A stretch of DNA of 64,000 bases from an uncultured Verrucomicrobiae bacterium (GTDB lineage Bacteria; Verrucomicrobiota; Verrucomicrobiia; Limisphaerales; UBA11358): contig CAVRAN010000003.1 of NCBI GenBank assembly GCA_963719075.1, positions 408,659 to 472,658 on the forward strand. The letters run 5' to 3'. Positions 1,892-43,151 of this stretch are shown here, one piece after another. A program made the translations under genes and the position numbers. Below the pieces are notes generated by a model that did no database searches, was not told where the DNA came from, and worked only from the letters and a program-made list of their open reading frames with translations. Every line of letters starts with the position of its first letter. Position 1 is the stretch's first letter.

Positions 1892-1916
1892 GATGGTGCC
1901 GACGGAGGGGGTCGAA
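1892..1916. repeat. Distal att direct repeat (orphan copy of the tRNA-Leu 3' end)
   Basis: GATGGTGCCGACGGAGGGGGTCGAA is identical to 43063-43087. Flanking bases differ on both sides, and no tRNA body follows it. Confidence 0.85.
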
Positions 1917-2046
1917 AACAAATCATAGACTTTCGTGACCCTGCGTAAACCTGCATCGTGACCGCATAAACACACGCGATTATGCACATTTGCCAAGTGG
2001 GCGTCAAGACAGCGTTTCGCGCACGAAAACGCACCAAAACGTGCAA

Positions 2047-2071
2047 AAAGTGTAACAACATTGTAACAACA
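2047..2071 (+). repeat. Tandem TGTAACAACA decamer pair (candidate recombinase arm-type site, distal arm)
   Basis: AAAGTGTAACAACATTGTAACAACA matches 43007-43031 at 24 of 25 positions, in the same orientation. It lies 130 nt inside the distal att repeat. Confidence 0.6.
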
Positions 2072-2272
2072 AAATGAGGCACGAGGGGGCGGGAGTATTG
2101 CCCTGTCGCCGAGTTTGAAAAGGGTAACGGATTGGCTCGCGTAAAATTTTTTTTAAAAGGGCAATTCTCGCCCGATTGATTTGTTATCTTCTTCAGCCAC
2201 ACACTGTGCCGGTTGCTGGCCATTGACACTCGGCAGGGTTACACCCCATAGCGCCCGCAAGATCGTCAGGCG

Positions 2273-3430
2273 ATGCTCTTAGCCATGAACAATAATATGC
2301 GACTCGTCGAAGTAGAAGTTGCGGTTTGCCTTGTGGCGGTGGCAATTGTTGCGTTCATTTTAATGGCTGCTAACGCCATCTGGAAATGCATGGTTTCCCC
2401 ATGGCCCGCTGCGATGTTATTGGTCACTTGTGTTTTGACAGGCTGTCAATCACCGCAGGTTATGTCGCAGAGTCAAACCGGCGCGGCACCAATGACACGA
2501 AACAATTGCTACAGTTTGCTCCATCAACTTCTGGACGAACAAAAGGACGTCAGCATCCTGCGCTTCTTCAAGCCTGAACAGGCTGATCTCAAAAATCTGG
2601 TAAAGAAAATCGCCACGACTTCCGGAACCGGAGCCACACTGTTGGAGGAATTTGCCAAGGACGATCCTTCAATCAAGCTGGATGACATCGGGCTTCCACC
2701 AGGAGAGGTAAGCACACGCGATGCGATTGCTTCCACCGAGGAGAAGAAATTATTGAGTAAGACCGGCAACACATTTGAACTGACCCTGCTTTTGACCCAG
2801 ACCGAGGCGTTAAACTATGCCTGGCATTTGGCAAAAGTCGCCGGCGAAAACGAGCCGCAACCCGAACGCGCCCGTGCGTTGGCAGGTTTAAGCGAGGATA
2901 TGCAGAACCTTTATAACGAAGTATTCGAGCTGTTGCTTTCAAAGACAAGATCATCAGCGACGAACTCAATCGCGGCCCAAGCAGCCCTGACTTCGACAAA
3001 CTCCGCTTCGACCAATCGGATTCTCATGATTGATCGCAGTTCCATGCCGATTGGCGCGGGCAAAGCCACTCTGATCATCGGGGCGCTCCAACGTGCGAAC
3101 GGCGTTTATTCGGGCGATTACAAAATTAAGGTGTTTCCCTATTTCTTCAAAAATGAAACGGGCAGGCTGGCCATTGTCGTTTCGGATAAGTCACTAGCGG
3201 AAATTAATCTGGGAAAAGTCGCCGCGATCATCGGAACCGCCACCACGAGCGGCAAAGGCGGCGCAAGCCGTCACATTGATGCAACGGCCACGCCGGTTGA
3301 CATCAATCGCGGAACGCTCAAGCTGTGGTTCACGGCGGGAAACAGGAATATGATCTTCGAGCCTGCCTATCACTTTGCCGAACAAGGGACGACAGTGGCA
3401 TTGGCACAGACGACTGAAACCAACCCTTGA
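2273..3430 (+). CDS. Hypothetical lipoprotein
   Basis: 385-aa ORF. The internal MLLVTCVLTGCQSP lipobox suggests the real start is the ATG at 2390 or 2414. No family was recognised. Confidence 0.5.
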   Translation: MLLAMNNNMRLVEVEVAVCLVAVAIVAFILMAANAIWKCMVSPWPAAMLLVTCVLTGCQSPQVMSQSQTGAAPMTRNNCYSLLHQLLDEQKDVSILRFFKPEQADLKNLVKKIATTSGTGATLLEEFAKDDPSIKLDDIGLPPGEVSTRDAIASTEEKKLLSKTGNTFELTLLLTQTEALNYAWHLAKVAGENEPQPERARALAGLSEDMQNLYNEVFELLLSKTRSSATNSIAAQAALTSTNSASTNRILMIDRSSMPIGAGKATLIIGALQRANGVYSGDYKIKVFPYFFKNETGRLAIVVSDKSLAEINLGKVAAIIGTATTSGKGGASRHIDATATPVDINRGTLKLWFTAGNRNMIFEPAYHFAEQGTTVALAQTTETNP

Positions 3431-3602
3431 ATTTTTTGTAAACGAATCACAGTTTCTTGAACCATCATTCAGCAAACGCCGCCGCATCATTTTTAACTCC
3501 TTAACCACCGTGCTACCGAGTCTGTGATAAAACAGCGGAACAAGGTAAATCCACAGGCATAGTTATTCCGTATTGTTTAAGCACACGACCCATTGGCGCT
3601 TA

Positions 3603-4562
3603 CTATCTGGAATTCGGAGTGACGCTATTCAAAAGAAGCGATGAAGGCGAACTTTGCGATGCTTTGGCTTGGGCGTTTGTGATGGCAATGACGGGCGACC
3701 ATTTAAGCCATTTCTTGTCCGCTTTTTCGTTGAGTGGAAAAGTGCTGTCGTTGGATACTAGCATTCCCGGCGACGGCGGCGTGGCAAAGGCGATTCCACC
3801 GATGACCAGCGATTTGAGGGTTTCCGCACTCATGCTGAATCCGGAAAATAACCCAAAGTGGGCACTAATGCCGCCGGCATTCCAGAATTTTGAATCCGTC
3901 CGCACCAGAGACTCAAAATTTGTCTCGATCAAAACATGAATATTGACCGCGGTTGAATCTTTCCCCAACACAAAATATCGCACCGAACCCACTTCCATGC
4001 CGCGATAATAAACCGGTGCGCCAACGGTCAATGAGCCGAGACTGGGTGTAGTCAAAATAATTTCCAGTTCACCTTCAGACGTTTCAAGAATGGGCGGCTC
4101 TTCCGCGCCAATGAATTTTTTTTGTTCCCCGCCGTTGCCCGGCTGCACTTGAATGTAGGGTCCCGATACAATCGTTTCCAAACCCTGCAACCCGCCCGCG
4201 CCTACTTCAGGACGCACGATCCAGAACACGGAGCCTTCGCGGGCCAGACTTTCAGCCGATTTGTCCAAACGCGCCTGCACTTCGACATATTTCGCTTCTT
4301 TGGCCAGTTGCACCGAAAGAACTTCGCCGACGCGCACACCACGATATCGAAGCGTGGTTTGATTGGCTTCAATTTCATTTCCGTTGTTGAACAGGATACT
4401 AATGACCGGTCCCGCTTGCCGAACATGTTTGAAAACGAGCCAGCCGCCGACGATTGCAGCCACCAGCGGCACAATCCAGACCATGGAAATCCGGGACGGC
4501 TTTTTTATTCTCGCCTCGGGCAAATCGCACGCTGGGGATTCATCCTTTTTTGTCGGGTTCAA
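3603..4562 (-). CDS. pqiB: MlaD/PqiB-family (MCE domain) intermembrane transport protein
   Basis: 319 aa with an N-terminal TM (MVWIVPLVAAIVGGWLVF) followed by MCE-like repeats (LRYRGVRVGEV.., VYYRGMEVGSV..). It overlaps the upstream pqiA-like gene by 23 nt. Confidence 0.8.
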   Translation of the reverse strand: MNPTKKDESPACDLPEARIKKPSRISMVWIVPLVAAIVGGWLVFKHVRQAGPVISILFNNGNEIEANQTTLRYRGVRVGEVLSVQLAKEAKYVEVQARLDKSAESLAREGSVFWIVRPEVGAGGLQGLETIVSGPYIQVQPGNGGEQKKFIGAEEPPILETSEGELEIILTTPSLGSLTVGAPVYYRGMEVGSVRYFVLGKDSTAVNIHVLIETNFESLVRTDSKFWNAGGISAHFGLFSGFSMSAETLKSLVIGGIAFATPPSPGMLVSNDSTFPLNEKADKKWLKWSPVIAITNAQAKASQSSPSSLLLNSVTPNSR

Positions 4563-5148
4563 TAATTTCCTCCTTCCAAATCAAGCGCGGGTCATAGCTC
4601 GAAGAAGCCAGGATCGTCAGGACGACGACGGACGCAAAAACGAAAATGCCCGGACCGGGAATCACCGTGGCGAATTTTCCGAACCGGATCAACGCCACCA
4701 TCACCGCCAGCAGAAAAACATCCAACATCGCCCACGGCCCAATCTTGTAAATTATCTTGTGAACGCGCGTGCGTAATTTTTGCCAGCGTTGTCCGCGATT
4801 CGAGACGAGGAAAACTAATCCGAGCAGTTTTAAAAGCGGAATAAGAATGCTCGCGGCAAAAACCAGCGTTGCCACCGCCCACATTCCATCACGATACAAA
4901 GCCCTCACGCTGCCCAAAACGGTATTTTGCGTATGACGCCCCATGTATTCCATGATCATGATGGGATAGATATTCGCCGGCACATACAGGCAAAGTGCCG
5001 CGAGCGCCAATGCCGCCGTTCGCGCGCGGCTGTTGGGATTGTCACGTCGGAGAATTCCCTCGCAGCGCGCGCATTCCGCCAGATGGCGCGGCGGCACGTC
5101 GCCCAGTTGCTGAACCAAACCGCAAGTTTCGCAGGCGATGACATTCAT
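4540..5148 (-). CDS. pqiA: Paraquat-inducible protein A family membrane protein (single-module, half-size)
   Basis: 202 aa. It has the N-terminal CxxC..CxxC zinc ribbon (CETCG..CARCEG) followed by TM helices typical of PqiA. It is paired with pqiB. Confidence 0.8.
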   Translation of the reverse strand: MNVIACETCGLVQQLGDVPPRHLAECARCEGILRRDNPNSRARTAALALAALCLYVPANIYPIMIMEYMGRHTQNTVLGSVRALYRDGMWAVATLVFAASILIPLLKLLGLVFLVSNRGQRWQKLRTRVHKIIYKIGPWAMLDVFLLAVMVALIRFGKFATVIPGPGIFVFASVVVLTILASSSYDPRLIWKEEIIEPDKKG

Positions 5149-5275: not shown

Positions 5276-6628
5276 TTACTGCTGCGCCTTGAGCTGAGCG
5301 TTTGCCGAGGAACCAGATTTTTCTTTCTCAAGGCGCTTTTCATCCGCTTCTCGCTTTTTTTCCTGCGCCAACTTTTGCTCTGGTGTCTGCACCGGTTGCG
5401 CTGGCTGCTTGACCACGGTACCTTGTTCAGTCTGTGGCTTCCGCTCCGGGTTAACTTCTGCCTGAACGGCGGGTTTGGGTGCCTTGTCTGGTTCCGCGCC
5501 TGGCTTGACTGGTTGACCCGCTGTCTTCACCACCTCGTCGGGTTTAGGTGCTGGCCTGAATTCTTCATTAGGCAGGCTTTTTTTCACTTCACCGGAAACA
5601 GTTTTTTCGTTTGACGTGACGACATTTGGTTCCTCGGCCTTGGGTTTCATCGGCAACGGTTCGGTCGGCTCGGCCATCGTCTCCTTCTTCTGAGCCGATT
5701 CTGCATTATTGAGCACCACTGGCTGGACTTTTTTCTCTGTCGTGGGTGCGTTTTTTCTGTGCGCGATGACCACGGCTGCTTCCTGCCGGGTTCGCAACCC
5801 TCTAGCTGCCACTACTTCGACTTTGCGCCCACTGGCCTGCGCGATGACCTCGGGACGTGGACCTTCATTGATCACCGTTTTGTTCACCACCTGGATTTTG
5901 GTGATATTAACCGTGTTATTAATGATGGTCGTATTGTTGACGATGACAGTTTGGTGGTGTTGAGGCTCCAACATTCGCCCTTCCTCCACGAAAACAAACG
6001 CGTGCGGGTCGATGGTTCCCTCTCGATATTCAAGACCCCCGTTTACTCCAATTCTCGCTTCCGGCGGCAAGGGTGCCCAACCGGCGTAACCTCCGCCTTC
6101 CCGCCAGGCAACCCAGGCCGGTGCCCACTGTGTCTGGGGAACCCAAACCCATCCGTTGTCCGGGTCCTGATACCAGCGTCCGTAATGACACGTCGCCCAG
6201 CCCCAGCGTTCGTCGCTGACCCAATACCAGCCGGCGTCCGTCCGTTGCCAATGGCCTTCGGTGTAAGGACGCCAATCCTGGTCAACACCAGCCGGCACCC
6301 AGCACCGTCCATACCCCTGTACTACAATCCAGCGCCCATACGCATTCAGCGGTTCGTAAAAGTCACTTACTGCATTAATCTCCAGAACCGCATCCGGTGC
6401 AGGTGCAGGTTCGACATATACCGGAGCTGGCTGAACATAGGCGGGTTGTTCGGTTACTACCACTGGCGCGGGCGCGGGCTGATAAACCTGCGCTGGTTGA
6501 GGTTGATAGACCGCCCGATCTTCAACCACACAGCCCGCCAGTAAAAGTGGGATGACCAAGAGTAAAACCGGTTTAAGTATTGTTTTTCGATTTAACATGG
6601 GAGGAAAATTACGACATGAGTTCGTCAT
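5276..6628 (-). CDS. Lipoprotein with Trp/Gly-rich WxxGxW-type repeats (DUF6600/BcpO-like) and a Pro/Lys/Glu-rich tail
   Basis: 450 aa with lipobox LLLAGC. The repeats are YGRWIVVQGYGRCWVP, GHWQRTDAGWYWVSDERWGWATCHYGRWY and GWVWVP. The C-terminal third is low-complexity (P/K/E/A). The family name is from memory. Confidence 0.5.
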   Translation of the reverse strand: MTNSCRNFPPMLNRKTILKPVLLLVIPLLLAGCVVEDRAVYQPQPAQVYQPAPAPVVVTEQPAYVQPAPVYVEPAPAPDAVLEINAVSDFYEPLNAYGRWIVVQGYGRCWVPAGVDQDWRPYTEGHWQRTDAGWYWVSDERWGWATCHYGRWYQDPDNGWVWVPQTQWAPAWVAWREGGGYAGWAPLPPEARIGVNGGLEYREGTIDPHAFVFVEEGRMLEPQHHQTVIVNNTTIINNTVNITKIQVVNKTVINEGPRPEVIAQASGRKVEVVAARGLRTRQEAAVVIAHRKNAPTTEKKVQPVVLNNAESAQKKETMAEPTEPLPMKPKAEEPNVVTSNEKTVSGEVKKSLPNEEFRPAPKPDEVVKTAGQPVKPGAEPDKAPKPAVQAEVNPERKPQTEQGTVVKQPAQPVQTPEQKLAQEKKREADEKRLEKEKSGSSANAQLKAQQ

Positions 6629-6806: not shown

Positions 6807-7100
6807 GTGTGGGCGTGGATGAAACGGCGTGGTTTCTCGGCTTGGGGAATGTTGTCGGCGGGCCATTATCCCATTGTGATGTTCGGGCCCGTGCATCTGC
6901 CGTCGATTCTTCCAGCCAACCCAATGCTATACGCCATATTGCGCAAAACCCATACGATACTGGCATATCTCCTATTCGTAACTTTTCTCTTCCACCTCGG
7001 CACTGTGTTGTTCCACACGCTCATCGTTCGCGACCGGCTGCTGAACCGCATGGCTCTGTGGCCAGTTCGCTCCCGCAATGTAAAAGTCGAAAAGAATTGA
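6807..7100 (+). pseudogene. Cytochrome b561-family remnant (C-terminal half only)
   Basis: The 97-aa ORF ends with the b561 C-terminal pattern ..LRKTHTILAYLLFVTFLFHLGTVLFHTLIVRDRLLNRM. The two N-terminal helices are absent, and an in-frame TAA lies at 6795-6797. Confidence 0.5.
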
Positions 7101-7203: not shown

Positions 7204-7238
7204 GTCTGATTTGTCAGACTTTGATTGACATTAAGTCT
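7204..7238 (+). promoter_or_regulatory. Overlapping inverted repeats around a TTGACA hexamer upstream of hipB (candidate operator/promoter)
   Basis: The repeats are GTCTGA(7204-7209)-N4-TCAGAC(7214-7219) and AGACTT(7216-7221)-N11-AAGTCT(7233-7238), flanking TTGACA (7225-7230). No convincing -10 box was placed. Confidence 0.3.
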
Positions 7239-7259
7239 TCTATAGCCGACACTAATCCC

Positions 7260-7577
7260 ATGTCGCAACAAGCCGCATCCCTGCCATTGCCCGCCGAACG
7301 TGCGCTCCGCAAGTTGGGCCGCGACCTCGCGCTCGCCCGGCGCAAGCGCGGCATCTCCACGAACGACATGGCCGCGCGGCTTTTTGTCAGCCGCGATACG
7401 CTCTGGCGGCTTGAGCGCGGCGACCCGACCGTCGCGCTCGGCACTTTGGTCACGGCAACTTTCATCCTTAACCTGCACGACCGTCTGGCAAATCTCGCCG
7501 CGCCCGCCAGTGACGAACTCGCTCTCAGCTTGGATGAGCGCCGTCTGCCTCAACGCATTCACCGCGCCAAACCATGA
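7260..7577 (+). CDS. hipB: HipB-like XRE-family HTH antitoxin
   Basis: The HTH segment is LRKLGRDLALARRKRGISTNDMAARLFVSRDTLWRLERG. The ATG at 7260 is preferred over the TTG at 7221. There is a 4-nt ATGA overlap with hipA. Confidence 0.75.
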   Translation: MSQQAASLPLPAERALRKLGRDLALARRKRGISTNDMAARLFVSRDTLWRLERGDPTVALGTLVTATFILNLHDRLANLAAPASDELALSLDERRLPQRIHRAKP

Positions 7578-8803
7578 GCTTGGAAGTCCACATTGATTGG
7601 CAGGGGCAGACTCATTTTGTGGGTCGTCTCCACACTGCCGAACGCGGCTCGTCCGTTTCATTTGAGTATACGACCGAATGGCTTCAGCGTGACGGAGCTT
7701 TCGCCATTGATCCGACATCGCTTCCGTTGCAACGCGGCGCACATCATGCGGCAACGCTTTTCGGGGCGATTCAGGATTGCGGGCCTGACCGTTGGGGGCG
7801 CGTCTTGATTGAGCGTGCCGTCCGTAAAAAAGTTCTCGCACAAAAACCGTATCACGAAATTGATTATGTGCTGGCGCTCGACGATGCGTCGCGCATCGGT
7901 GCTTTGCGTTTCCGGCTTGATGCTAAAAGTCCGTTTCTCGCCGCTACCAGTGGAAAACTCCCGCCGTTGGTTCGTCTCAACGCCCTGCTTCACGCCACGG
8001 ATGCAATTCACAGCAAGACTGAAACCGCCCAGGATTTGCGATTCCTCCTCGGCGCTGGTTCGCCGCTCGGCGGTGCCCGGCCAAAATCAGCGGTCAGTCT
8101 GGCCGACGACCGGCTCGCCATCGCGAAGTTTCCCAAACCCGATGATACGCGGGACATTGCTGCGGGCGAGATTCTCGCGCTTACACTTGCAGAGCAAGCT
8201 GGTATTCAAGTCGCGGAACATCGGCTCGTGTCTGTGAGGAACCAAAGCGTCGCTGTCATCACCCGTTTTGATCGCGCGGGAGAAAATCGCATCCCTTTCA
8301 TCTCTGCGGCCAGCTTATTGGGACTGCCTCAAGGTGATGTCGGTGCCTACACCATGTTGGCTGACGGTATTCGTCAATTTGGCAACGATGTCCCCGACGA
8401 CCTCCGCGAACTGTGGCGTCGCCTTATTTTCTCGCTGCTCGCCAGCAACTACGATGACCATCTCCGCAATCATGGTTTTCTCATGCGCGAACCGGGACGC
8501 TGGTCGCTCTCGCCGGCCTACGACATCAACCCCGTGCCGGAAATGGATCGTGTCCACATGAGCAAAACTGCCATTACCGAAGATCAAGTTGAACCAACCA
8601 TTGCGGTTGCACTGACCGCTGCCGAGCGGTTCGGTCTCAAGGCTGTTGAGTCGAAGAAAATTCTTCGTGAAGTTTTCACTACCATTTCTGGCTGGCGCAA
8701 AACCGGACGAAAACTGCGTCTCAAAGCGTCCACGCTTGATACCTACGCCAGTGCCTTCGAGCATCCGCTCATGGATGAAACCAAGCACCTGATTGGTAAA
8801 TAA
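7574..8803 (+). CDS. hipA: HipA-family serine/threonine kinase toxin
   Basis: 409 aa with HipA signatures GSPLGGARPK, NYDDHLRNHGFL and LSPAYDINP. Confidence 0.9.
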   Translation: MSLEVHIDWQGQTHFVGRLHTAERGSSVSFEYTTEWLQRDGAFAIDPTSLPLQRGAHHAATLFGAIQDCGPDRWGRVLIERAVRKKVLAQKPYHEIDYVLALDDASRIGALRFRLDAKSPFLAATSGKLPPLVRLNALLHATDAIHSKTETAQDLRFLLGAGSPLGGARPKSAVSLADDRLAIAKFPKPDDTRDIAAGEILALTLAEQAGIQVAEHRLVSVRNQSVAVITRFDRAGENRIPFISAASLLGLPQGDVGAYTMLADGIRQFGNDVPDDLRELWRRLIFSLLASNYDDHLRNHGFLMREPGRWSLSPAYDINPVPEMDRVHMSKTAITEDQVEPTIAVALTAAERFGLKAVESKKILREVFTTISGWRKTGRKLRLKASTLDTYASAFEHPLMDETKHLIGK

Positions 8804-8813: not shown

Positions 8814-9497
8814 TCACTTTTTCCGCCGCCGCACTTCTTCGAGCAGCATCCGTGCAAAGGTTTTGGCGTGTGGGTTGGGGCGTAAAGCCGAAAGGCCTAT
8901 CATCACCACCGCGCTGGGCAACATCGGCGCAAACGGCCGGGCAACAAGAGTCCGTGGCATGATGCTGAGGATGCCCTCGGTCAGAATTGCCGCAGCACGG
9001 TGCGCCTCCAATTCCGTGAACAATGTTGAAAGGCCATCGTTCACAAGTGAAACGAAGCGCGGCAAAACTCCGAATGGTTTAAGTATTCCGCGCACGTGCG
9101 GCACTTATTCGGGACAATTGCCCTTCGCCAGACCGATGAGGGGAAGATCGCGCAAACGCTTGGGCGGAATTCGCTTTAACTTTGCCAGCGGGTGCGTCTC
9201 CGGCATGACCAAAACGGGCTGCAAGCGTTGCAACTCGGTCCATTGAAATTCTGAAGTTCCCTTCGTTATGGAAATGCCGGGACTGATCACTAGGTCGAGC
9301 CGTCCTTCGTTGGCCAGTTCGTTGATTTCCCGCGACGAAAGATCCGTCAGCTCGATGCGCACGCGCGGAGTGGCCGTTTGAAATTTTTCCAAAACGGCGG
9401 ACATGACGCCGGCGATGATCGAGGGAGCGTAGCCGACGCGCAGAGTCTCGCTACGCGCTTCGCCGCGCACGTTAAAGCTAAAGCGCGTGATCCACAA
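8814..9497 (-). pseudogene. LysR-family regulator remnant (no HTH domain; in-frame stop)
   Basis: Two same-phase ORFs (9105-9497 and 8814-9104) are separated only by TAA at 9105-9107. Together they encode a LysR substrate-binding domain (LRVGYAPSIIAGVMSAVLEKF..RLDLVI..). The N-terminal wHTH is missing, with an upstream stop at 9537-9539. Confidence 0.7.
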
Positions 9498-9773: not shown

Positions 9774-10013
9774 CTATGGGAAAACTTGGACGCGGTAGAA
9801 ACTTACTGGATCGGTAAAGTTGTCGGTGTTTTGGGTTGTCGGTCCGATAGCAGTAATGACACCGCCGAATCTCGTGAACGGAATGCACAGGTTGGTGGTG
9901 GACCAGACTTGATAGGTCATGCCGGAAATACTTGTCCAATTCAGTACGCCGTTACCTTGCATGCTTAAAATAGGAAGCCCTGGACATTGGCCGAGGAAGT
10001 TGCGGGGATGCAT
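9774..10013 (-). pseudogene. C-terminal fragment of a large secreted Verrucomicrobia-type protein
   Basis: The ORF ends ..LNWTSISGMTYQVWSTTNL..GGVITAIGPTTQNTDNFTDPVSFYRVQVFP. This resembles the conserved C-terminal module (..YxVQxSTNL..FYRV) of large PVC surface proteins. Only ~75 codons are present. Confidence 0.35.
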
Positions 10014-11634: not shown

Positions 11635-11670
11635 GTCAAAGTGGAGCGCAGCCGGATGAGGCGAGCAATA
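11635..11670. repeat. Left copy of a 29-bp (36 bp with 2 mismatches) inverted repeat pair
   Basis: TGGAGCGCAGCCGGATGAGGCGAGCAATA (11642-11670) is the exact reverse complement of 41515-41543. Similarity extends through TTGAC after 2 mismatches. Confidence 0.85.
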
Positions 11671-30824: not shown

Positions 30825-30827
30825 TTG

Positions 30828-35109: not shown

Positions 35110-36050
35110 TTGATGTCAAGGAACTGGAACAAAATATCAATGGCGCGGTCACTCGTACGAATAACGGCGTCGAGTGTATTGGAACCATTGTGTGAGCCAA
35201 AGATGCAACGATCAAATTTGCGCAATGCCGAATCAACAGGCAATGGTTCGGACTCAAACACATCCAATGCCGCGCTATGAACATGGCCGCTTTCCAGGGA
35301 AGCGACCAAAGCTGATTCATCAATCAATGGTCCGCGCGCCACGTTGACGATACGAACGCCAGCCTTTGCAGCGGCCAAAGTCTGGTTATTTAGCATGTGC
35401 CGGTTTTCTTTGGTGAGGGCACAGGTAAAAACAATGAAATCACATTCGCCAATGTGGTCTGGCCATTGAGCCGGCAATACCGATTCCAACCCTTCCATCG
35501 GCTTGAAAAATGGATCGTAAGCAATGACTTTCATTTCCGCAGCGAACAATCTTTTCGCCGTTTGCCTTCCTATGTCACCGAAACCAACAAGTCCAGCCGT
35601 ACGCCCGGCAAGGGAAATACCGACGGGTTTGGGCCATTGCCCGCTCCGAACCCCACGATCTATTAAAAATGTCTGACGCGCGAGTGCGGTAACGTAGCCC
35701 ATGGCAACGTCGGCGACTTCCCTGCCAAACGCTGCAGGGGTATTGGCGATGGGAATGCCAAGGTCTTTACAGGCGACAAAATCCACGTTGTCAACGCCCA
35801 CGCCCCATTTGGCAGCGGCGCGCAACCGTCCGGCTTTTCCAGCGGCAAAGACGCGGCGTGTCGCGGGGTCGTCGCCGATAATCCAGCCGTCAAATCCAGG
35901 AAGAAGAGAGACCAATTCATCTTCAGTCAACGTTTGCACTACATTCGGAGTAACAACCTCAACACGTTTATCCAAAAAACGCGAACGGCAGTTGTCTATT
36001 GACCGCAACATCGGCGGACAAGTCACTAAAATTCGAACGGCGGAATTCAT
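35106..36050 (-). CDS. D-isomer-specific 2-hydroxyacid dehydrogenase (PGDH-like)
   Basis: Motifs are GLVGFGDIGRQ and NVARGPLIDESALVASLESGHVHSAALDVFESEPLP. There is a 4-nt overlap with the upstream cytidylyltransferase. Confidence 0.9.
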   Translation of the reverse strand: MNSAVRILVTCPPMLRSIDNCRSRFLDKRVEVVTPNVVQTLTEDELVSLLPGFDGWIIGDDPATRRVFAAGKAGRLRAAAKWGVGVDNVDFVACKDLGIPIANTPAAFGREVADVAMGYVTALARQTFLIDRGVRSGQWPKPVGISLAGRTAGLVGFGDIGRQTAKRLFAAEMKVIAYDPFFKPMEGLESVLPAQWPDHIGECDFIVFTCALTKENRHMLNNQTLAAAKAGVRIVNVARGPLIDESALVASLESGHVHSAALDVFESEPLPVDSALRKFDRCIFGSHNGSNTLDAVIRTSDRAIDILFQFLDIK

Positions 36051-36745
36051 TTGGATGATCCCTTTCGCGACAGTCCGGCAGCCATGATTTCAGCGATGTC
36101 CCAGCCTTCCTGATCGTCAATGTCGGCGGATTCAACGCGAGGCGTTTCAAACATCATTGGTTTGGCGCCAATGCGCGCCGACGTCGCTGCAAAGCTTTGG
36201 CGATTGAACAGGTAGAGATTGGAATTTTCTTCAAACCACGGTTCCAAGTCCTGGGTGCGGACCAATTTTTTGGGGTCATGGTTCACGGGCGAGCCGTCGG
36301 CGCGGTAAAAACGGGTTTGAAATTTATTGACGGCAAAGAGGCTGTCAGCCATTCCTTTCGCAACGGCTTCACGATGGGCGGCCAGCGCGCGCCGGATGGT
36401 ATCGGCGCTTAACAAAGGATTGGTGGTATGCGTCATCAAATAGGTTTCACTGGCTATGGCGGCAATATCGTCGGCCAGCACCAGGTTCATGCTCACAAAG
36501 TCACCGCAAATTTCCGGTTTGCGGTCGCGAATCAAAATCCGTCCGCTGTCCGTCAGTCCGTTGGCGGCAAGGATATCGCGCGCGTCGGTGTTGATGATAA
36601 TTTTTTGAATTTCATCCACGTTCAACAACGTATTGAGAATCCAACGAAAGAGCGGCTTGCCGGCGAAATCACGGAAGTTTTTTCCCGAAACCCGCGCGCT
36701 ATGCGCTTTCATCGGTAAAAGGGCAACATATTGATAGTCAGTCAT
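36047..36745 (-). CDS. Acylneuraminate/KDO-type cytidylyltransferase family protein (CTP_transf_3)
   Basis: LLPMKAHSARVSGKNFRDFAGKPLFRW..IIINTD fits the NeuA/KdsB/PseF family N-terminus. The substrate is unknown. Confidence 0.75.
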   Translation of the reverse strand: MTDYQYVALLPMKAHSARVSGKNFRDFAGKPLFRWILNTLLNVDEIQKIIINTDARDILAANGLTDSGRILIRDRKPEICGDFVSMNLVLADDIAAIASETYLMTHTTNPLLSADTIRRALAAHREAVAKGMADSLFAVNKFQTRFYRADGSPVNHDPKKLVRTQDLEPWFEENSNLYLFNRQSFAATSARIGAKPMMFETPRVESADIDDQEGWDIAEIMAAGLSRKGSSK

Positions 36746-36846
36746 TTTTTAGTTTGCCTCTTGATGCTTTCAAACGATTGTCCAAGATAGAGTCCATCAT
36801 GGAATGTTATGTGGCCAGACTAATAACCATCGCAGATGCTGGCACA

Positions 36847-37656
36847 TTACTTTTGTGCTGTTAATACATAATTCCGCCCACAGATCAAAAAGCGCAAGGC
36901 AAATGGCGGCGCAAGTTTTTTGTGGAGATACTTGACTTCCCCGGGAAACGTACTGTTTGGACCGAACAAATCCCAATGTGTCGGCACTAGGACATCCGCC
37001 CCCGTCCGTTCGGCCATCATAAACGCTTCGCGAATGCTCATATTGCCTACGATGCCGGCTTCATTCCGGAAATAGTTGCGTTCATTGACTGGAAGGAACG
37101 CATAGTCAATCGCCACGCCGGCAAGTGCCAAGAAAATTTCCGAATGGGGAATGGTATCTCCGGCATGGTAGATGGTGCAATCAGGCCATTCCATGAGATA
37201 ACCCATGAAACGCAATTCGCCGGCGGAGTTGCGTTCCAAAATCGTGTGCGCTGCGGGAATGGCACGAATACGCAACGTCCCGATAGTCGTCTCCTTTTCC
37301 GAGGCGCGGATGATTTTAGCCTTTGGAATACCGCATTCGAGGAGAATGGAATCCACTTCGTAGGGACATATAAAGCGAACGGCTGGCGAGGCTGCGGCAA
37401 TCATTCGGACGCTCTTCGGATCAGTATGGTCTAGGTGCGCGTGAGTCAGCAAAACGTGGCTGATACCGGAAAGCCCATGTGCTTGAACCGCCGCCGGGTA
37501 AAGCCGTTTCATATGACTCCCGAACTGATCAGCCACAGCATCCGTCAAATAAGGGTCTATCGCCACACGGTCTCCATCGTGTTCAAACAGATAACCCGTT
37601 TGCCCGAGCGAACAAACGTTTAGGAAATTCTGTTTATTAGGATGGTTTTTAGGCAT
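36847..37656 (-). CDS. MBL-fold metallo-hydrolase
   Basis: HVLLTHAHLDHTD (HxHxDH) plus downstream His/Asp ligands. Confidence 0.8.
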   Translation of the reverse strand: MPKNHPNKQNFLNVCSLGQTGYLFEHDGDRVAIDPYLTDAVADQFGSHMKRLYPAAVQAHGLSGISHVLLTHAHLDHTDPKSVRMIAAASPAVRFICPYEVDSILLECGIPKAKIIRASEKETTIGTLRIRAIPAAHTILERNSAGELRFMGYLMEWPDCTIYHAGDTIPHSEIFLALAGVAIDYAFLPVNERNYFRNEAGIVGNMSIREAFMMAERTGADVLVPTHWDLFGPNSTFPGEVKYLHKKLAPPFALRFLICGRNYVLTAQK

Positions 37657-37706
37657 CGGGTGGAGTGCAAAGCGTGGAGTGAAGTAAACCGCAAGACCGT
37701 GTTACC

Positions 37707-39005
37707 TTAAAAGCCCAACGTAAATTGAACACCGGCCTGATTGTCTGTCACGTTGCCGCCGGTTGGTCTTTGATCATAATACCATTGGTAAAAAATCTGG
37801 CCGACAAGGTATTTGCCAAGTTTCGCCTGGAAGCCAAGGCGGGCGTTCCAATAGTCATCCGTATATTTCGCAAGTCCGGTGGCGGTGGTGTCAGGGGTGT
37901 AATCAACGTTGTAGTAGCCCACATTGAAGGTGGCCATAAAGCGGTCCGTGATACCTTGGTTCACACCGAGTCTGGCTCCGGTGCTAGTGTAATAGTAGCC
38001 GCTGTAAATGGAGGCATATTGCTGCCGGGAGCCGGTCAGGTTCATTGTCGTGCGTTCCGCAAGCTGGTACTGGCCGGTAACGGTGAACACGGTGGAAATG
38101 GTGTCGGGGTTGCCATCTTCATATTGAATCCATTCCGCGCCGACGGAAGCATCGAAGGTGAGTTTTTCAGTGTAATTATAGCGCAAGCGCGCGAGGAGCT
38201 GTTCAAACGTCTGGTCCTGACCCCCGGTGACCACATCCAAACCGCCGATCACACCCACACTAGCATGCAGGTTCTCTTCAATTTCATAATTAAACCAGTC
38301 CTTGGTATTGTATTCGGTGTAACCGGTCAGACCCGGCTGGTCATAGCCGACGCTGTATCGCTGGAAATCGCTTTCCAGAGAGGTACGTTCCCCCAATTGA
38401 TACGCGAGGGAAATCGTGGTGGTGATGGTTTGGATTCCGGTGCGCTGGCCGGCCTCAACCAGGGTAGTTTTCTGATCTTCATAATCCTGCCTCAATCCGA
38501 AAATGAACTTGCTTATCGGCCAGAGCAGATTGAGTGTGCCGAACTGGTCTATGGAATTATTGCTAGAATAATGGTCAAAGAATTGAAAGCGCGGGCCGTA
38601 GTCCAGGATGAACAATTTCCCCGGCCAGTCTTCGGGCGGTTGAATAATGAGAGCGTCGGGTGAAAGGGAGAGGACATCAACATGGGCGTCGCGATAGGTA
38701 ACTAAGGCGGCATCGTCCCCGGCGACAGCCTGCACGGCGGGCTGAACGGTCCATATTTCATCGGCCTCGGTGTTCATGGAGGAAAACAATATGTTATCGT
38801 CGTAAGTCATGCCGGCGGTAACCCGCGGATGCAAATCAAATGGTCCCAGCCGAAAGTCCAGAGGCTTTTTTTGGTCGGTTGATTCAGTCGTGGTATCGTC
38901 TGACGCTGCCGCAGTTGAATCATTTTGCGCGACTGCGTTGGCACTCGACTTTAAAAACACACACGCCACCGCGAGGCTAATCCAGTTTCGAAAGATGCAA
39001 TACAT
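37707..39005 (-). CDS. Outer-membrane beta-barrel protein (EpsL-like, first gene of the EPS array)
   Basis: It has a signal peptide, alternating beta-strand pattern with aromatic girdles, and a C-terminal ..VQFTLGF with terminal Phe. Confidence 0.6.
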   Translation of the reverse strand: MYCIFRNWISLAVACVFLKSSANAVAQNDSTAAASDDTTTESTDQKKPLDFRLGPFDLHPRVTAGMTYDDNILFSSMNTEADEIWTVQPAVQAVAGDDAALVTYRDAHVDVLSLSPDALIIQPPEDWPGKLFILDYGPRFQFFDHYSSNNSIDQFGTLNLLWPISKFIFGLRQDYEDQKTTLVEAGQRTGIQTITTTISLAYQLGERTSLESDFQRYSVGYDQPGLTGYTEYNTKDWFNYEIEENLHASVGVIGGLDVVTGGQDQTFEQLLARLRYNYTEKLTFDASVGAEWIQYEDGNPDTISTVFTVTGQYQLAERTTMNLTGSRQQYASIYSGYYYTSTGARLGVNQGITDRFMATFNVGYYNVDYTPDTTATGLAKYTDDYWNARLGFQAKLGKYLVGQIFYQWYYDQRPTGGNVTDNQAGVQFTLGF

Positions 39006-39237
39006 TTGGCCTTGGTTTTGGAATCGTCCGTCAGCAATTACACCGTATTTTCAATAACTCCTTCAAAATTTTTATATCACGCCGAATTTGTGTGTCTATT
39101 AAATAAAAAAAATAAAAAGCCCGTTTCATCATCGAACATTTTTAATTACGACCGGCCACGCACATCCGTTTATTTTCACACTTCGTGCCCGTCAGTTCGC
39201 AGATGCTTTTTGCTCTCGCATTTGCCAACCGAGTTTT

Positions 39238-39612
39238 TCAGCTCCCCGGGTTGCCATAAAAGTTGACCTCGTTGCCGCTGTTCCCCAAACAGTCCATAAA
39301 GTCCACAAAGAGCGCCCGGAAAGAAAACGGGCATATTAAATCATCGTGCAAAAAATACCGGTCTGTGGAGACATCCTGGTCGAGGGCATTGAGTTGATGA
39401 TCCAGCAGGAACAAGCCCGCCTGGTGGTGTTGACACCAATGCCATAGTCGGTTGCCGTCAGATGTGTTGTTACAGCGTAGATGCCGCTTTCGGAAAATCC
39501 TATGTCGAAGTCGTTTGAAACCGGCCAGAGCCACGCCTATGCGAAGGATTCTTGCAATTGATAATTTTATAAATTTGATAGGCTTTGGTTTTGTTTGAAA
39601 AGTTTTTGGCAT
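39238..39612 (-). CDS. Hypothetical protein
   Basis: 124-aa ORF that overlaps the upstream 71-aa ORF by 46 nt in another frame. The two may be one frameshifted gene. Confidence 0.25.
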   Translation of the reverse strand: MPKTFQTKPKPIKFIKLSIARILRIGVALAGFKRLRHRIFRKRHLRCNNTSDGNRLWHWCQHHQAGLFLLDHQLNALDQDVSTDRYFLHDDLICPFSFRALFVDFMDCLGNSGNEVNFYGNPGS

Positions 39613-39782
39613 CTACCGTCCTGATTCTCCTTCATTTCTTCCATTGCAATAACTAAATCAAAAAGCTCGTCTTGTGTCATTACAATTTTAGGCCAATGGT
39701 ATTCATATTTCGGACGCGAGGTGATCGTGAACAGGGGAACGGTCTTGACAACAGCGAAAGCCTTCTTCCACATTAAAATCAA
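39567..39782 (-). CDS. Hypothetical protein
   Basis: 71-aa ORF with no family recognised. Confidence 0.2.
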   Translation of the reverse strand: MILMWKKAFAVVKTVPLFTITSRPKYEYHWPKIVMTQDELFDLVIAMEEMKENQDGRCQKLFKQNQSLSNL

Positions 39783-39791
39783 TTTATTTTC

Positions 39792-40469
39792 ATGACCCTC
39801 AAAACCGAACTATTTTACAAACTTCCACAAAATGTCATCGCCATCTTCACCGGTCGCAATCTCTTATGGCACGCGCTGGCCATTGTCCTGACGATCATGA
39901 GTGTCATGTCAGGCTTCGACTGGTTTTATTATCGTTCGACGCGGGTAGAGGCGTTGCTTCAACTTGCCCGCCCGGCCATTATGTTCGGAGCCATACTTCC
40001 GGCTTTGGCAACTTTTGTCATTTTGATAATTGGCGAGGTTAGAAAAAACCGCCGCATCATCACGACTGCGTGGGCTTTGGGACAGACGGCCATTCTCAGC
40101 TATGTTGTATCCTGCGGCTACAAGGCATTCACCGGACGCACCGGGCCGCCATTTAGAGGCTTCAGAATGCCTGACGCCACTTCACTGGCTGACCCCAGCC
40201 ATGGCTTCCATTTCGGTTTCATCAAAGGGGGCGTCTTCTGGGGCTGGCCCTCGTCGCACACCACCGTTACGTTTGCCATGACGGCCTGCCTGATCACCCT
40301 CTATCCCAAAAACAAGACGCTTGTTTTCATCGCGTTGTTTTATGCGCTCTATATCGGCTTCGGCGTCTCGGTGACCATCCATTGGTTCTCCGACTTTGTG
40401 GCCGGAGCCATCATCGGCAGTATGAACGGGACAGTAATAGGAAGAAGTTTTAGAATGAAACTGGCTTGA
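39792..40469 (+). CDS. PAP2-family phosphatase (possible undecaprenyl-diphosphate phosphatase)
   Basis: The three PAP2 motifs are present: YKAFTGRTGPP, WPSSHT and SVTIHWFSDFVAG. There are multiple TM helices. Confidence 0.8.
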   Translation: MTLKTELFYKLPQNVIAIFTGRNLLWHALAIVLTIMSVMSGFDWFYYRSTRVEALLQLARPAIMFGAILPALATFVILIIGEVRKNRRIITTAWALGQTAILSYVVSCGYKAFTGRTGPPFRGFRMPDATSLADPSHGFHFGFIKGGVFWGWPSSHTTVTFAMTACLITLYPKNKTLVFIALFYALYIGFGVSVTIHWFSDFVAGAIIGSMNGTVIGRSFRMKLA

Positions 40470-40721
40470 AGCTCGCAATTCAAATAAAGAATGTAGTCCT
40501 TTTGAAATCAGAAGCGTTTCCGATTGCCGCCCCAGTGGCTCGCAAAACTAGAAACACCAACCTTCAGGAATTCTTCGTGCTTGCCGGAATTTTGAAAGAG
40601 ATTGCCGTTGCTGTTCAGCCGACAATTTGCGGAAGAGTTTCCATCCCTTATCAACAAGGCCGTTCCCGTGTGAATAACGAACGCAATCTGCGTGTCAGTC
40701 CGAAAAAAAATGCGCCGACGC

Positions 40722-40961
40722 CTAACCCGTTTCTTGGCCGTGAGCGTTGATGTGAAAATGCCGGGCGAGATAAGCGTCCACTTCGACTTTGGGAAAACGA
40801 ACGATTTTTGACGTGAGTTTGATGAAGGGCAGACGACGCTGCCGCATGAGATTATCAATCGTCCGTCGGCTGACATTCAAGCGTCGGGCAACCTGTGATT
40901 TGGTTTCGTAATCCGGCAGTGCGGAAATTTCTGTTCGCTCCGGGTTCATGTTCGTATCCAT
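40722..40961 (-). CDS. Excisionase-like helix-turn-helix DNA-binding protein
   Basis: 79 aa. KSQVARRLNVSRRTIDNLMRQRRLPFIKLTSKIVRFPKVEVDAYL is an MerR/AlpA-type Xis fold pattern. It lies near the integrase. Confidence 0.7.
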   Translation of the reverse strand: MDTNMNPERTEISALPDYETKSQVARRLNVSRRTIDNLMRQRRLPFIKLTSKIVRFPKVEVDAYLARHFHINAHGQETG

Positions 40962-41097: not shown

Positions 41098-41428
41098 TAC
41101 CCCTAATTTTCATTAGGCTTTCGAGTGCGCGCAAAAGCCGCGCCAGAGCCGCGCAATTTTTCGCAGTCGCGGACAAGGAACAGGCAGTCCCTGATCGTGG
41201 ACTTGGCCGTGCATAAAACGCGAACACGGATGACCGTGTCCGTGAACAGTCCGCAGTCATTTTCAGTCCGTGACCGTGACCGCGTCCGTGATTTGTCCGT
41301 GTCCACGTCCAGTCCAAGCCCGCGCACAGTCCGCGAACAGGCAACGGATAATCTGGCGCGAAGTAATTTTTGCGCGGAAATTCCGCGACTCATGCGTGAA
41401 CCCCAAAACCATAATCTGATTAGGGGTA
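41098..41428. repeat. Non-coding repeat-dense block (iteron-like) between int and xis
   Basis: It is bounded by TACCCCTAAT (41098-41107) and ATTAGGGGTA (41419-41428). GTCCGTG occurs 4 times (41238, 41266, 41284, 41295) and CAGTCC 5 times (41185, 41247, 41264, 41310, 41327). CCGCG..CGCGG palindromes sit near both edges. Confidence 0.7.
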
Positions 41429-41514
41429 GGGCTTTGTCCTAAAAAAGAATGACTGCGATACTGTGTGCGCGTGAATCAGAGGCCGATTATGTGTCGCCGG
41501 TCGGCGCGTCAATC

Positions 41515-41550
41515 TATTGCTCGCCTCATCCGGCTGCGCTCCAAATTGAC
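41515..41550. repeat. Right copy of the 29-bp inverted repeat pair
   Basis: TATTGCTCGCCTCATCCGGCTGCGCTCCA (41515-41543) is the reverse complement of 11642-11670. It lies 85 nt downstream of the int stop codon. Confidence 0.85.
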
Positions 41551-41627
41551 CCGCCGCCCGGCTCCGAGATTTTGCCTCTAGATTCCGCGCACGGGGAATT
41601 TACGGTGCGACAGATACAGGCGCAGCA

Positions 41628-43001
41628 TCATGCGTTGGCGGTAATTCGCAGCGGGACGACGTTGCCAGCCTGCTTGGGCGGCATGATGGAGAACCAAGCT
41701 TTTGCCTCGGCATCGGTCGCCAAGGCGCGGTAGTTGGAAAATATAACCTGTGGTGAATTGCCACATTCCAGCGCCACGGCAGGCACGTCTTTGAGCACAG
41801 CCACGCGATAGGAAATATAAGAGTGGCGGAACCCGTTGCGCTTCCACGACACCTTGGCCCGTGCCGCCGCGCGCTCAAAACGGTCGCCCAAGGCGTTACC
41901 GACATTTTCGGCCTTTTCATCGCAGGGATTCATCAAGCCGAACCGCTTGGCATACGGAGTCAGCCACACGGCGAGATTGTCACTAATTGGCACCAACCGG
42001 CGGGCGGCCGTCTTGGCGTTTTCCGCGCTCACAACAATCAATTTTTCAGACAGCCGCACATCTCGCCAGTCCAGTCGTGAAACTTCTGACAATCGCAAAC
42101 CGGCAAACGCGGCAATGGCCAGCGCCGGGACAATGGCCGCGTCCGCTGCCGCGAGGATGGCGCGCATTTCATCCGGCGGGTAGATGCCGATGGGCGCGGG
42201 CACTTTCCGGGGCGTGGAAATTTCTGAAAGTTCAAGGGCAAGTTCAGCGGACACATATTTCTGGCGGCGGGCGAAGTTGAACAGGCTCACGATCTGCCGG
42301 AGCATATTTTCCTTGGTGCGCGCGGCGGTGTCCTTTTTCGTCTTTTGTTTTTTCAATCCGTAAATCCATTGTTGAACCAGCGGCGCGCTGACGGCGATCA
42401 TGGGCAGCACAAACGCTTTGGAGAATTGACCGAGGCGAAATTGAAGGTCGTGGATATGCACCGCCGAACAACCGGCGCTCCGCCGATCAGCGATGAATTC
42501 CGTGACGACTTCGGCGACAGTTTTGCGCGGCATGTTGGACGGATGCTTCTGTTTGTAGAACTGCATCGCTTCCGTGAGGGTCACACCCGGTAACAGACTC
42601 GCGCGGGCAGTGGTGTAGTCACGCACGATTTCCACCAGCCGGGCGGCACTGGCGTTGCCGATGCCTTCGTTCTTGGCCAGCAACGCGAGGGCTTGTTCGA
42701 GGGATACGCGATCTGCGGCGCTCAACGCCGCCGCTCCGAGCGCACCCTGTGCTTTCTGCTCCGCGACGCACAGCGCCTCGGCATTGGCCTGGGCGAAGTC
42801 CATGAAGCGGCGAAGCTGACGCTTTCCGCCCGCGTAGTAACTCAACAAAAAAGTCGGAAAATTTTTACCGCGAACATGACCGTTATTTTTGTAAATTTTC
42901 ACCGCGACATCGCCATTGCGGACAACGTGCGGCCAAGTTTTCGGCAGACGAGCGGGCTTTGATTTCGGCAAAATCAAATCAGCAGAAAAACCATTCTTCA
43001 T
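41628..43001 (-). CDS. Tyrosine-type site-specific recombinase (island integrase)
   Basis: 457 aa. The C-terminal catalytic domain carries GLRLSEVSRLDWRDV, NGFRHSYISY and VIFSNYRAL (R..HxxR..Y pattern). The start codon is ~60 nt from the tRNA 3' end. Confidence 0.9.
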   Translation of the reverse strand: MKNGFSADLILPKSKPARLPKTWPHVVRNGDVAVKIYKNNGHVRGKNFPTFLLSYYAGGKRQLRRFMDFAQANAEALCVAEQKAQGALGAAALSAADRVSLEQALALLAKNEGIGNASAARLVEIVRDYTTARASLLPGVTLTEAMQFYKQKHPSNMPRKTVAEVVTEFIADRRSAGCSAVHIHDLQFRLGQFSKAFVLPMIAVSAPLVQQWIYGLKKQKTKKDTAARTKENMLRQIVSLFNFARRQKYVSAELALELSEISTPRKVPAPIGIYPPDEMRAILAAADAAIVPALAIAAFAGLRLSEVSRLDWRDVRLSEKLIVVSAENAKTAARRLVPISDNLAVWLTPYAKRFGLMNPCDEKAENVGNALGDRFERAAARAKVSWKRNGFRHSYISYRVAVLKDVPAVALECGNSPQVIFSNYRALATDAEAKAWFSIMPPKQAGNVVPLRITANA

Positions 43002-43006
43002 GCGTC

Positions 43007-43031
43007 AAAGTGTAACAACACTGTAACAACA
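43007..43031 (+). repeat. Tandem TGTAACAACA decamer pair (candidate arm-type site, tRNA-proximal arm)
   Basis: AAAGTGTAACAACACTGTAACAACA begins 5 nt upstream of the int start codon and ends 31 nt before the att core. Confidence 0.6.
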
Positions 43032-43062
43032 TTTCAAGACATATCAAAAAACCCTTTATTTT

Positions 43063-43087
43063 GATGGTGCCGACGGAGGGGGTCGAA
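43063..43087. repeat. Proximal att direct repeat (within the tRNA-Leu 3' end)
   Basis: Identical to 1892-1916. It covers the tRNA T-loop through CCA plus 2 nt. Confidence 0.85.
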
Positions 43088-43151
43088 CCCACACATCTGT
43101 GAAGATACTAGATTTTGAGTCTAGCGCGTCTGCCAATTCCGCCACATCGGC
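43065..43151 (-). tRNA. tRNA-Leu (anticodon CAA), CCA-encoded, long variable arm
   Basis: Minus-strand sequence: GCCGATGTGGCGGAATTGGCAGACGCGCTAGACTCAAAATCTAGTATCTTCACAGATGTGTGGGTTCGACCCCCTCCGTCGGCACCA. The acceptor stem has 7 bp (one G-U). The anticodon stem is CTAGA/TCTAG with loop CTCAAAA. The T-loop is TTCGACC, with one U-U mismatch in the T stem. Confidence 0.85.

Follow-up and report, generated by a model that had tools for sequence, protein, structure and literature searches.

How did 41 kb of DNA come to lie between a tRNA-Leu(CAA) gene and the genes on its far side in the genome of an uncultured Verrucomicrobiae bacterium? We analyzed a stretch of 64,000 nucleotides (nt) from this genome (GenBank assembly GCA_963719075.1, contig CAVRAN010000003.1, positions 408,659 to 472,658 of the forward strand; GTDB order Limisphaerales, UBA11358), which is called the window hereafter and supplies all coordinates below. 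An earlier note on this DNA had recognized an attL and an attR site and had taken the segment between them for an integrated island, a reading that is supported by an empty site in relatives, by the uniqueness of the repeat and by a compositional contrast. We conclude that window 1892-43087 is very probably an ordinary integrase-driven genomic island of 41.2 kb in the tRNA-Leu gene of a Limisphaerales-like Verrucomicrobium. This conclusion draws on direct observations, namely of the repeats and the tRNA, of the genes, of sites that are empty or otherwise filled, and of the compositional contrast.

The boundaries are marked by a 25-mer, GATGGTGCCGACGGAGGGGGTCGAA, of which the window has just two copies, one at 1892-1916 and one at 43063-43087, with a start-to-start distance of 41,171 bp. 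The two copies are identical in every position, as the earlier note had said, and no third copy was found in the 64-kb window when up to 3 mismatches were allowed. ARAGORN and Rfam (RF00005, 53.1 bits) agree on a single tRNA in the 64 kb, an intact tRNA-Leu(CAA) at 43065-43151 on the minus strand, which is the integration target and is identical in sequence to the tRNA at an empty site in a related locus (L001; related loci are referred to by such numbers below). Because the tRNA is placed at these positions, the right copy of the repeat, the attR core, spans the stretch from the T-loop to the CCA end plus 2 nt. The left copy, the attL core, aligns with the attB of L120 and L121 and with the attL of L119 and L090 and has no tRNA body, so that the intact and the orphan tRNA end are indeed distributed as proposed before.

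Could the repeat have arisen by chance, or be one of many dispersed copies, with the 41 kb being native chromosome? None of 100 dinucleotide-preserving shuffles contained a match to the 25-mer, and among 126 related loci the 25-bp core was not found outside tRNA-Leu genes or island attL ends. The 25-mer, unique in the window and confined in this way elsewhere, is not a dispersed repeat. Together with the existence of empty sites, these results refute the idea of a native segment.

The empty site is found in L120 and L121, two metagenome contigs whose GH26 proteins are 90% identical to that of the window and in which holB, GH26, the core and tRNA-Leu(CAA) follow one another with nothing between. 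Window 499-1916 aligns continuously to these two loci at ~87.5%. From the core onward they align with window 43063-43211, where ARAGORN places an intact tRNA-Leu(CAA) in them as well. In a six-way alignment, L120 and L121 show first the sequence to the left of attL, then the core and then the tRNA body as it stands at attR, with the junction exactly at the repeat; judged from the alignment, their sequence is the attB expected of an uninterrupted site. The more distant relatives L001 and L009 also lack the 41-kb island. Their tRNA-Leu lies 17-82 nt after holB, without GH26, and the tRNA is followed directly by hisF in L001 and after ~5.5 kb in L009.

The flanking genes conform to the earlier description of housekeeping genes on both sides. 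On the left, the N-terminal 266 amino acids (aa) of holB, encoding DNA polymerase III delta', occupy 3-800 on the minus strand and run off the window (PF13177, 164 bits), aligning with L001, L009, L090 and L119. A GH26 mannanase-like gene, outside the island, follows at 813-1841 on the same strand (PF02156, 6e-60); its homologs number more than 1,000, those that are listed and named are from Verrucomicrobiota, and the best is 90% identical. On the right, hisF lies at 43250-44023 on the plus strand (PF00977, 263.8 bits), with 96% protein identity to L001, from a Verrucomicrobiota metagenome-assembled genome, and the best ~60 HisF loci are almost all from Verrucomicrobiota, many of them labelled Limisphaerales, Pedosphaera or subdivision 3. 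Since L001 and L009 have holB and lack both GH26 and the island, GH26 was considered as part of an older island. This idea was dropped, because the GH26-holB adjacency, kept in L119, L120 and L121, is ancestral in the closest lineage.

It is also evident that the same site can be filled by other elements. L119 is 88.7% identical to window 1-2081, across holB, GH26, the attL core and the adjoining arm, and then continues into unrelated cargo with Gp49/HTH toxin-antitoxin genes and Fic. In L090, a sister element of 7.5 kb lies between tRNA-Leu and holB and carries an integrase, an excisionase, an HsdR C-terminal fragment, an IS1-like gene and a DUF4143 ATPase; its left end (the 201-nt attL end) is 85% identical to window 1894-2093.

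The base composition of the segment differs from that of its surroundings. The guanine-plus-cytosine (GC) content is 50.1% in the island and 52.3% in the right flank, and the patchiness noticed earlier is confirmed by a range of 41.9% to 57.3% among 2-kb windows, with ~53-57% on the left of the island and 42-47% in the core of an exopolysaccharide (EPS) locus described below. Tetranucleotide profiles were compared in non-overlapping 4-kb windows, flank windows being scored leave-one-out. The distance to the flank profile was 18.9-31.4 in the island windows (10/10) and 10.7-15.2 in the flank windows (5/5), and thus every island window lies beyond every flank window (P = 3e-4, Mann-Whitney test), a deviation that the earlier note had proposed to look for.

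Genes for integration and excision lie at the tRNA end of the island. A tyrosine integrase of 457 aa is encoded at 41628-43001 on the minus strand, with 63 nt between its start and the tRNA 3' end. It matches PF00589 at 34.6 bits (cutoff 27.1) over a partial stretch (residues 277-354) and the phrog_1 profile "integrase" at 2e-22 (residues 142-398), and it aligns weakly with XerD across the catalytic Arg and Lys region, where R303 and K330 fall. R303, K330, R392, H393 and Y424 are invariant among 13 aligned family members, whose identity to the window integrase is 57-94%. The Arm-DNA-bind Pfam domain was not detected in the integrase by Pfam and NCBIfam profile searches. A gene 666 nt downstream of the integrase stop, at 40722-40961 on the minus strand, encodes a protein of 79 aa that is a candidate excisionase, or HTH_17 recombination directionality factor, with matches to TIGR01764 (38.6 bits, cutoff 28.8), HTH_17 (PF12728, 42.2 bits) and phrog_66, and with a weak match, through its helix-turn-helix (HTH), to a terminase small-subunit PHROG. 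The recombinase ~60 nt from the tRNA and the excisionase-like gene ~670 nt downstream of it, both pointed out in the earlier note, were therefore recovered with profile scores above cutoff. The excisionase is 77% identical to the product of the gene adjoining the integrase of the L083 element, and xis is conserved beside int in L083, L084, L090 and others.

To what wider group does this integrase belong? There are 323 homologs at E <= 1e-10, dozens of them 80-95% identical; among the close homologs listed, most are 457 aa long, and the few named ones are from Verrucomicrobiota metagenomes. In at least 20 contigs, from at least 3 chromosomal neighbourhoods, a relative of the integrase follows immediately downstream of tRNA-Leu(CAA), and the adjacency holds in every integrase contig with enough upstream DNA, with L113 as the sole exception. 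The neighbours at these sites vary, being hisF, a GH94/response-regulator region or an LRR_5 gene; in L093 and L096 the integrases sit at a tRNA-Leu adjoining hisF. The window element thus belongs to a tRNA-Leu(CAA)-specific island family that is common in peat and soil Verrucomicrobiota. Judging from the loci compared, members share the int-xis end and ~180 bp of the opposite arm, and their cargo is interchangeable. In L113 (9700-10010), an integrase has the arm motif upstream, with no tRNA or core within 10 kb; its tRNA-proximal end appears to have been replaced.

The two ends of the island also carry candidate integrase binding sites, since a tandem motif, GTGTAACAACAYTGTAACAAC, is present on both arms of the element. 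On the P' arm (1917-2093, plus strand), identified by a motif scan and by the L090 and L119 alignments, the tandem arm-type motif reads GTGTAACAACATTGTAACAAC and lies at 2050-2070, 133 nt inside attL; this copy is kept in L090 and L119. On the P arm, the motif scan places the tandem motif GTGTAACAACACTGTAACAAC at 43010-43030 (plus strand), between the integrase start and the core. It is placed alike in L081-L088 and L113 and was found in all sister loci checked. The nonamer TGTAACAAC occurs 5 times in the window, compared with 0.26 expected, and 4 of these 5 occurrences are at the two arm sites. By analogy with lambda, the tandem motifs fit sites of the arm type, at which the integrase would bind the P and P' arms.

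These features fit the standard model of island integration. An attP carried by the element very probably recombined site-specifically with the 3' end of the chromosomal tRNA-Leu(CAA), in a reaction catalysed by the element's own integrase (41628-43001). The N-terminal domain of this enzyme would bind the tandem GTGTAACAAC repeats (also GTAACAAC) at 2050-2070 and 43010-43030, and its catalytic domain would exchange strands at a presumed crossover within the 25-bp identity. The element has its own version of the final ~23 nt of the tRNA, plus 2 nt, so that the tRNA is made whole again at attR when the element integrates, and attL is left with the orphan copy. For the reverse reaction, direction would come from the HTH_17 excisionase (40722-40961). 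A tRNA-Leu beside a sister island in L084 (565-651) has a mismatched acceptor stem, 5' GCCGACG versus 3' CGCTGGC, and on the 3' side its acceptor sequence is that which accompanies the L083-type element. Such a chimeric stem would result from a 3' end supplied by the element, which indicates that the L084 tRNA end was probably donated by an element from a host with a different tRNA sequence.

An integrase, an excisionase and attachment at a tRNA are also features of prophages and integrative conjugative elements (ICEs), and the island might have been either. Searches of the island open reading frames (ORFs) against Pfam, NCBIfam and PHROGs returned no relaxase, coupling protein or type IV secretion domain and no capsid, terminase or tail domain. 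The PHROG matches in a phage functional category are confined to the integrase and the excisionase, one small ORF matching a PHROG of unknown function. Moreover, the integrase family is absent from IMG/VR save for one relative with 27% identity. A prophage or an ICE is thus very improbable, and an island without these functions is the reading that we follow.

What does the island carry? From 12.0 to 40.5 kb it holds a Wzx/Wzy-type EPS locus with an exosortase, that is, a complete slime-polysaccharide (exosortase) gene cluster. The exosortase (EpsH family), with a long C-terminal extension, is encoded at 12023-13684 on the minus strand and matches PF09721 (3.7e-41, 141.6 bits, cutoff 25.7) and the TIGR04178 signature (50.7 bits, cutoff 23). 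It reaches the cutoff of no NCBIfam exosortase subtype (102 bits for XrtA, for which 208 are needed). Among 5.8 billion proteins its nearest relative is 42% identical, apart from a near-identical contig of 2.7 kb in a separate JGI record (L125; JGI sample 3300048822), with 99.7% identity. A foreign origin of the cargo fits the difference between these relatives, at most 42% identical, and the 90-96% found for the flank genes and the integrase. A gene at 14382-15029 on the plus strand encodes a secreted DUF4114 protein (PF13448) with a PEP-CTERM-like tail (VPE, a hydrophobic stretch, then RNRKMK); its C-terminus, read from the translation, is VPETTTLVGGALLSGMGMLVMLRNRKMKLG, and it matches no NCBIfam PEP-CTERM model. 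Between these two genes, at 13916-13986, is an inverted repeat, perfect over 27 nt and with a loop of 17 nt, which is probably a terminator or a regulatory hairpin.

Genes for EPS initiation and export lie at 15669-20298 on the minus strand. They encode a Wzc-like chain-length determinant/tyrosine autokinase (TIGR01007, 149.6 bits, cutoff 108), a priming polyprenyl glycosylphosphotransferase (TIGR03025, 385.5 bits, cutoff 295.6) and a Wza-like exporter with SLBB domains (Poly_export, 68.8 bits, cutoff 28), which scores below the cutoffs of the EpsE and XrtA-exporter NCBIfam models. The EPS assembly genes, assigned by Pfam and NCBIfam, follow at 21134-33556 on the minus strand in the low-GC part of the island, with three glycosyltransferases, a beta-helix/GH141-like protein, an acyltransferase_3 protein, a Wzy-like polymerase (28710-30047, minus) and a Wzx-like flippase (32090-33556, minus). 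Sugar-modification and envelope genes within 34375-40469, also assigned by Pfam and NCBIfam, encode an SDR protein, a 2-hydroxyacid dehydrogenase, a cytidylyltransferase and an MBL-fold hydrolase; the product of 37707-39005 weakly matches a PEP-CTERM-associated outer-membrane protein, and a PAP2 phosphatase gene lies at 39792-40469. The ORFs at 30078-30824 and 39238-39612 are unassigned. At the 3' end of the PAP2 gene, a 129-nt stretch (40373-40500) is 80% identical to L081 9409-9537 and is also found in L082 and L089. In these three loci, which have an integrase relative of 95% identity, the PAP2-like stretch lies outside the tRNA, on the chromosomal side.

The left block of the island is of a different content. 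It begins with a gene for a 385-aa cargo protein with no family match (2273-3430; NCBIfam and PHROG searches negative), followed by genes whose products were assigned by Pfam, an MCE/MlaD protein (3603-4562) with a paired PqiA-like protein (4540-5148) and a DUF6600 protein (5276-6628). The hipBA pair mentioned in the earlier note is present on the plus strand, with hipB at 7221-7577 (HTH_31, 31 bits) and hipA at 7574-8803 (HipA_C 6.6e-46; Couple_hipA). Several gene fragments recorded there are likewise borne out by partial Pfam matches. These are a cytochrome b561 C-terminal fragment at 6807-7100 on the plus strand, a pseudogene piece that covers profile positions 132-176 of 179 only (PF01292), a LysR substrate-domain fragment without HTH at 9105-9497 and a DoxX fragment at 9987-10286. 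An ORF that adjoins the LysR fragment (8814-9104) has no Pfam match and is, by inference, a further LysR piece. A luciferase-like monooxygenase gene (10361-11458, plus; PF00296, 8.8e-55) ends the block.

Two insertion sequence (IS) elements were identified. An intact IS5-type element at 26266-27422 (plus strand; transposase 26320-27270, DDE_Tnp_1 and DUF772) lies inside the EPS locus, with perfect 15-bp terminal inverted repeats, a 5-bp target duplication (CACTT) and a GC content of 58-64% compared with ~40% in its surroundings. A 237-aa transposase of the IS1595 family is encoded at 33615-34328 on the minus strand (PF12762, 1e-41; NF033547, 191.9 bits, cutoff 75). Of the three IS families counted in the earlier note, two were thus confirmed; a third family was not found among the unassigned island ORFs by Pfam, NCBIfam and PHROG searches.

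Is the island still able to move? Excision requires only int, xis and the att sites, and all of these are present, so that continued excision is plausible from the sequence, with the chances about even. Somewhat short of even, we place the alternative that the island integrated as described and is now a fixed, decaying remnant unable to excise or move, its replication and transfer functions gone and its regulation disrupted, which would make it immobile. Such decay would account for the LysR, cytochrome b561 and DoxX genes that survive as fragments, for the IS insertions, for the lack of any relaxase, type IV secretion or phage gene in the Pfam, NCBIfam and PHROG searches and for the missing modules that follow xis in sister elements. 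In those elements the genes after xis encode a second HTH_17 protein, a protein of 352-462 aa and, in one case, a primase/DUF3987 protein. Against it speak the perfect 25-bp repeats, an integrase of 457 aa that matches most listed close homologs in length and keeps all family-invariant residues, an excisionase of full length (79 aa, as in L090) and two intact pairs of arm sites.

The spacer between int and xis (41231-41590) bears on how the island was assembled. It contains GTCCG(Y)G iterons at ~41231-41340 and an imperfect palindrome of ~125 nt, denoted S, at 41467-41590, which is bounded by GCGCGGAATC/GATTCCGCGC and is kept across the family with few compensatory changes. Transfer or replication may start from this spacer, or it may act as a regulatory switch. 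A structured RNA was also considered for the palindrome and set aside, because both strands fold equally well, compensatory changes are few and no Rfam family matches; equal folding of both strands and few such changes are expected of a DNA palindrome. In L083 (11554-11817) and L108 (1787-1887), the spacer is reversed in orientation relative to int and its block order is changed compared with the type shared by the window and L090. A simple invertible switch is ruled out in this comparison, since the block order differs besides the orientation, and the difference is a modular rearrangement, not one clean inversion.

An isolated 36-nt copy of the apex of this palindrome lies at 11635-11670 on the plus strand, inverted relative to 41515-41550 (inverted repeat I1, 94% complementary). 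The inverted pair brackets 29.8 kb that include the EPS locus and xis. Among the 126 related loci, the 28-nt core of the apex occurs only in the int-xis spacers of the family, the copy at 11.6 kb in the window being the one addition, and the junction at this copy is also present in contig L125 with 99.7% identity. The copy may mark how the cargo was captured, or it may be a relic.

These observations raise the possibility of stepwise growth, in which a small element like the 7.5-kb L090 was integrated first and the ~30-kb EPS block and other DNA were captured later, through IS elements or through recombination at the spacer palindrome. Sister islands share their ends alone, the cargo being wholly different in the window, L090, L119 and L083; the 36-nt inverted apex copies (11635-11670, 41515-41550) bracket the EPS block; the composition is mosaic, from ~53-57% GC on the left to 42-47% in the EPS core; and the intact IS5-type element with its target duplication shows that insertion has been ongoing. 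An intermediate form was not seen, however, the 36-nt copy is isolated with no other element sequence around it, and a mosaic composition is typical too of EPS loci that move as one unit. We regard stepwise growth as a reasonable candidate that falls a little below an even chance. A bolder proposal is that the island is a live member of an undescribed tRNA-Leu(CAA) element family by which surface-polysaccharide/exosortase loci are carried in their entirety from one Verrucomicrobium of peat or soil to another, with the palindrome and the GTCCG iterons as its origin of transfer or replication and 11635-11670 as a secondary recombination site that captures or inverts the 29.8-kb EPS module. Taken as a whole, this proposal seems unlikely.

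Several observations weigh against the reading of the segment as an ordinary integrase-driven island. The two loci with the clean empty site, L120 and L121, belong to different species (~87% nt identity) and not to strains of the island's own host species, and beyond the tRNA they have an LpoB/CsgG cluster instead of hisF. The two canonical His positions of the catalytic pentad appear, by motif inspection, to be Asn (N389, N415) throughout the integrase family. Remnants of the genes that follow xis in sister elements were looked for in the window and none were found. The pseudogene fragments and the two IS elements within the island suggest that it may be degenerating, and the inverted 36-nt copy hints at internal rearrangement or stepwise assembly. 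The ordinary integrase-driven island nevertheless remains by far the most probable reading, with the strength given at the outset.

Two further variable spots lie to the right of the island. Immediately beyond hisF (44025-44915), the window includes an additional gene, of the DUF2971 type (44058-44912), which L001 lacks; in L002, L009 and L025 the region downstream of hisF holds an insert of up to ~2.7 kb, and a duplicated 3' end of hisF lies 0.5-0.8 kb beyond the gene. Within 50079-52012, the 5' coding end of ribH (51548-52012) is found twice more ahead of the gene, as partial copies at 50094-50147 and 50910-50963. Between the copies lie small ORFs that resemble antitoxin or toxin genes by sequence inspection, a pair after the first and a single one after the second, and L002 has two copies (47 and 69 nt) that are 100% identical to window 50073-50146. 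The start of ribH looks like the product of serial cassette insertion, each regenerating the 5' end of the gene.

Mobile elements of Limisphaerales-type Verrucomicrobia have, to our knowledge, hardly been described, and the island provides a clean, well-bounded example of horizontal transfer in this abundant and almost uncultured group of soil and peat bacteria. For one integrase family, tRNA-Leu(CAA) is a landing pad that is used again and again, and cargo turnover at this site is complete between close relatives, with EPS/exosortase genes here and restriction and toxin-antitoxin genes elsewhere. Given this turnover, such islands may drive the diversity of surface polysaccharides in these organisms. 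The defined attL, attR and attB sequences, together with the arm motif, can be used to find further members. In our literature search, neither a published description of the window element nor a clear precedent for a tRNA island that carries an exosortase locus was found. The understanding of how genomic islands work is unchanged by these results.

How does the island compare with known systems? Its closest named analogues are tRNA islands with tyrosine integrases of the lambda/P4 style, such as the high-pathogenicity island (HPI) of Yersinia at asn-tRNA and, at leuX, PAI II of uropathogenic E. coli 536. Like these enterobacterial islands, the window island lies at the 3' end of a tRNA, with a short repeat that regenerates the tRNA, int beside the tRNA and a small xis nearby, and it is mosaic, bears IS elements, carries cell-surface cargo and is absent from relatives. 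It differs from them in that its integrase is not P4-like by sequence, having weak similarity to XerC/D and PF00589, and in that its host is a Verrucomicrobium and its cargo an exosortase/EPS locus rather than virulence genes. With integrative mobilizable and other small tRNA-targeting elements, the family shares small members (7.5 kb in L090), a conserved int-xis end with att arms, exchangeable cargo that includes restriction, toxin-antitoxin and ATPase genes, and iterons with a long palindrome between int and xis that could be an origin of transfer or replication. Unlike those elements, the window island has no identified relaxase or recognizable origin of transfer; it is five times larger than the L090 element and lacks the primase-type genes of one relative.

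The cargo itself resembles the PEP-CTERM/exosortase EPS loci of Haft et al. (2006, as cited in PMC4886054). As in those loci, an exosortase is found with a Wzc-like kinase, a Wza-like exporter, a priming transferase, glycosyltransferases and a protein with a PEP-CTERM-like tail. Unlike those loci, the window locus lies wholly inside an integrase-bounded island, and its exosortase reaches no subtype cutoff and has a nearest relative of 42% identity. In organization, the segment is thus a textbook tRNA-integrated genomic island, which differs from its named analogues in host, integrase lineage and cargo.

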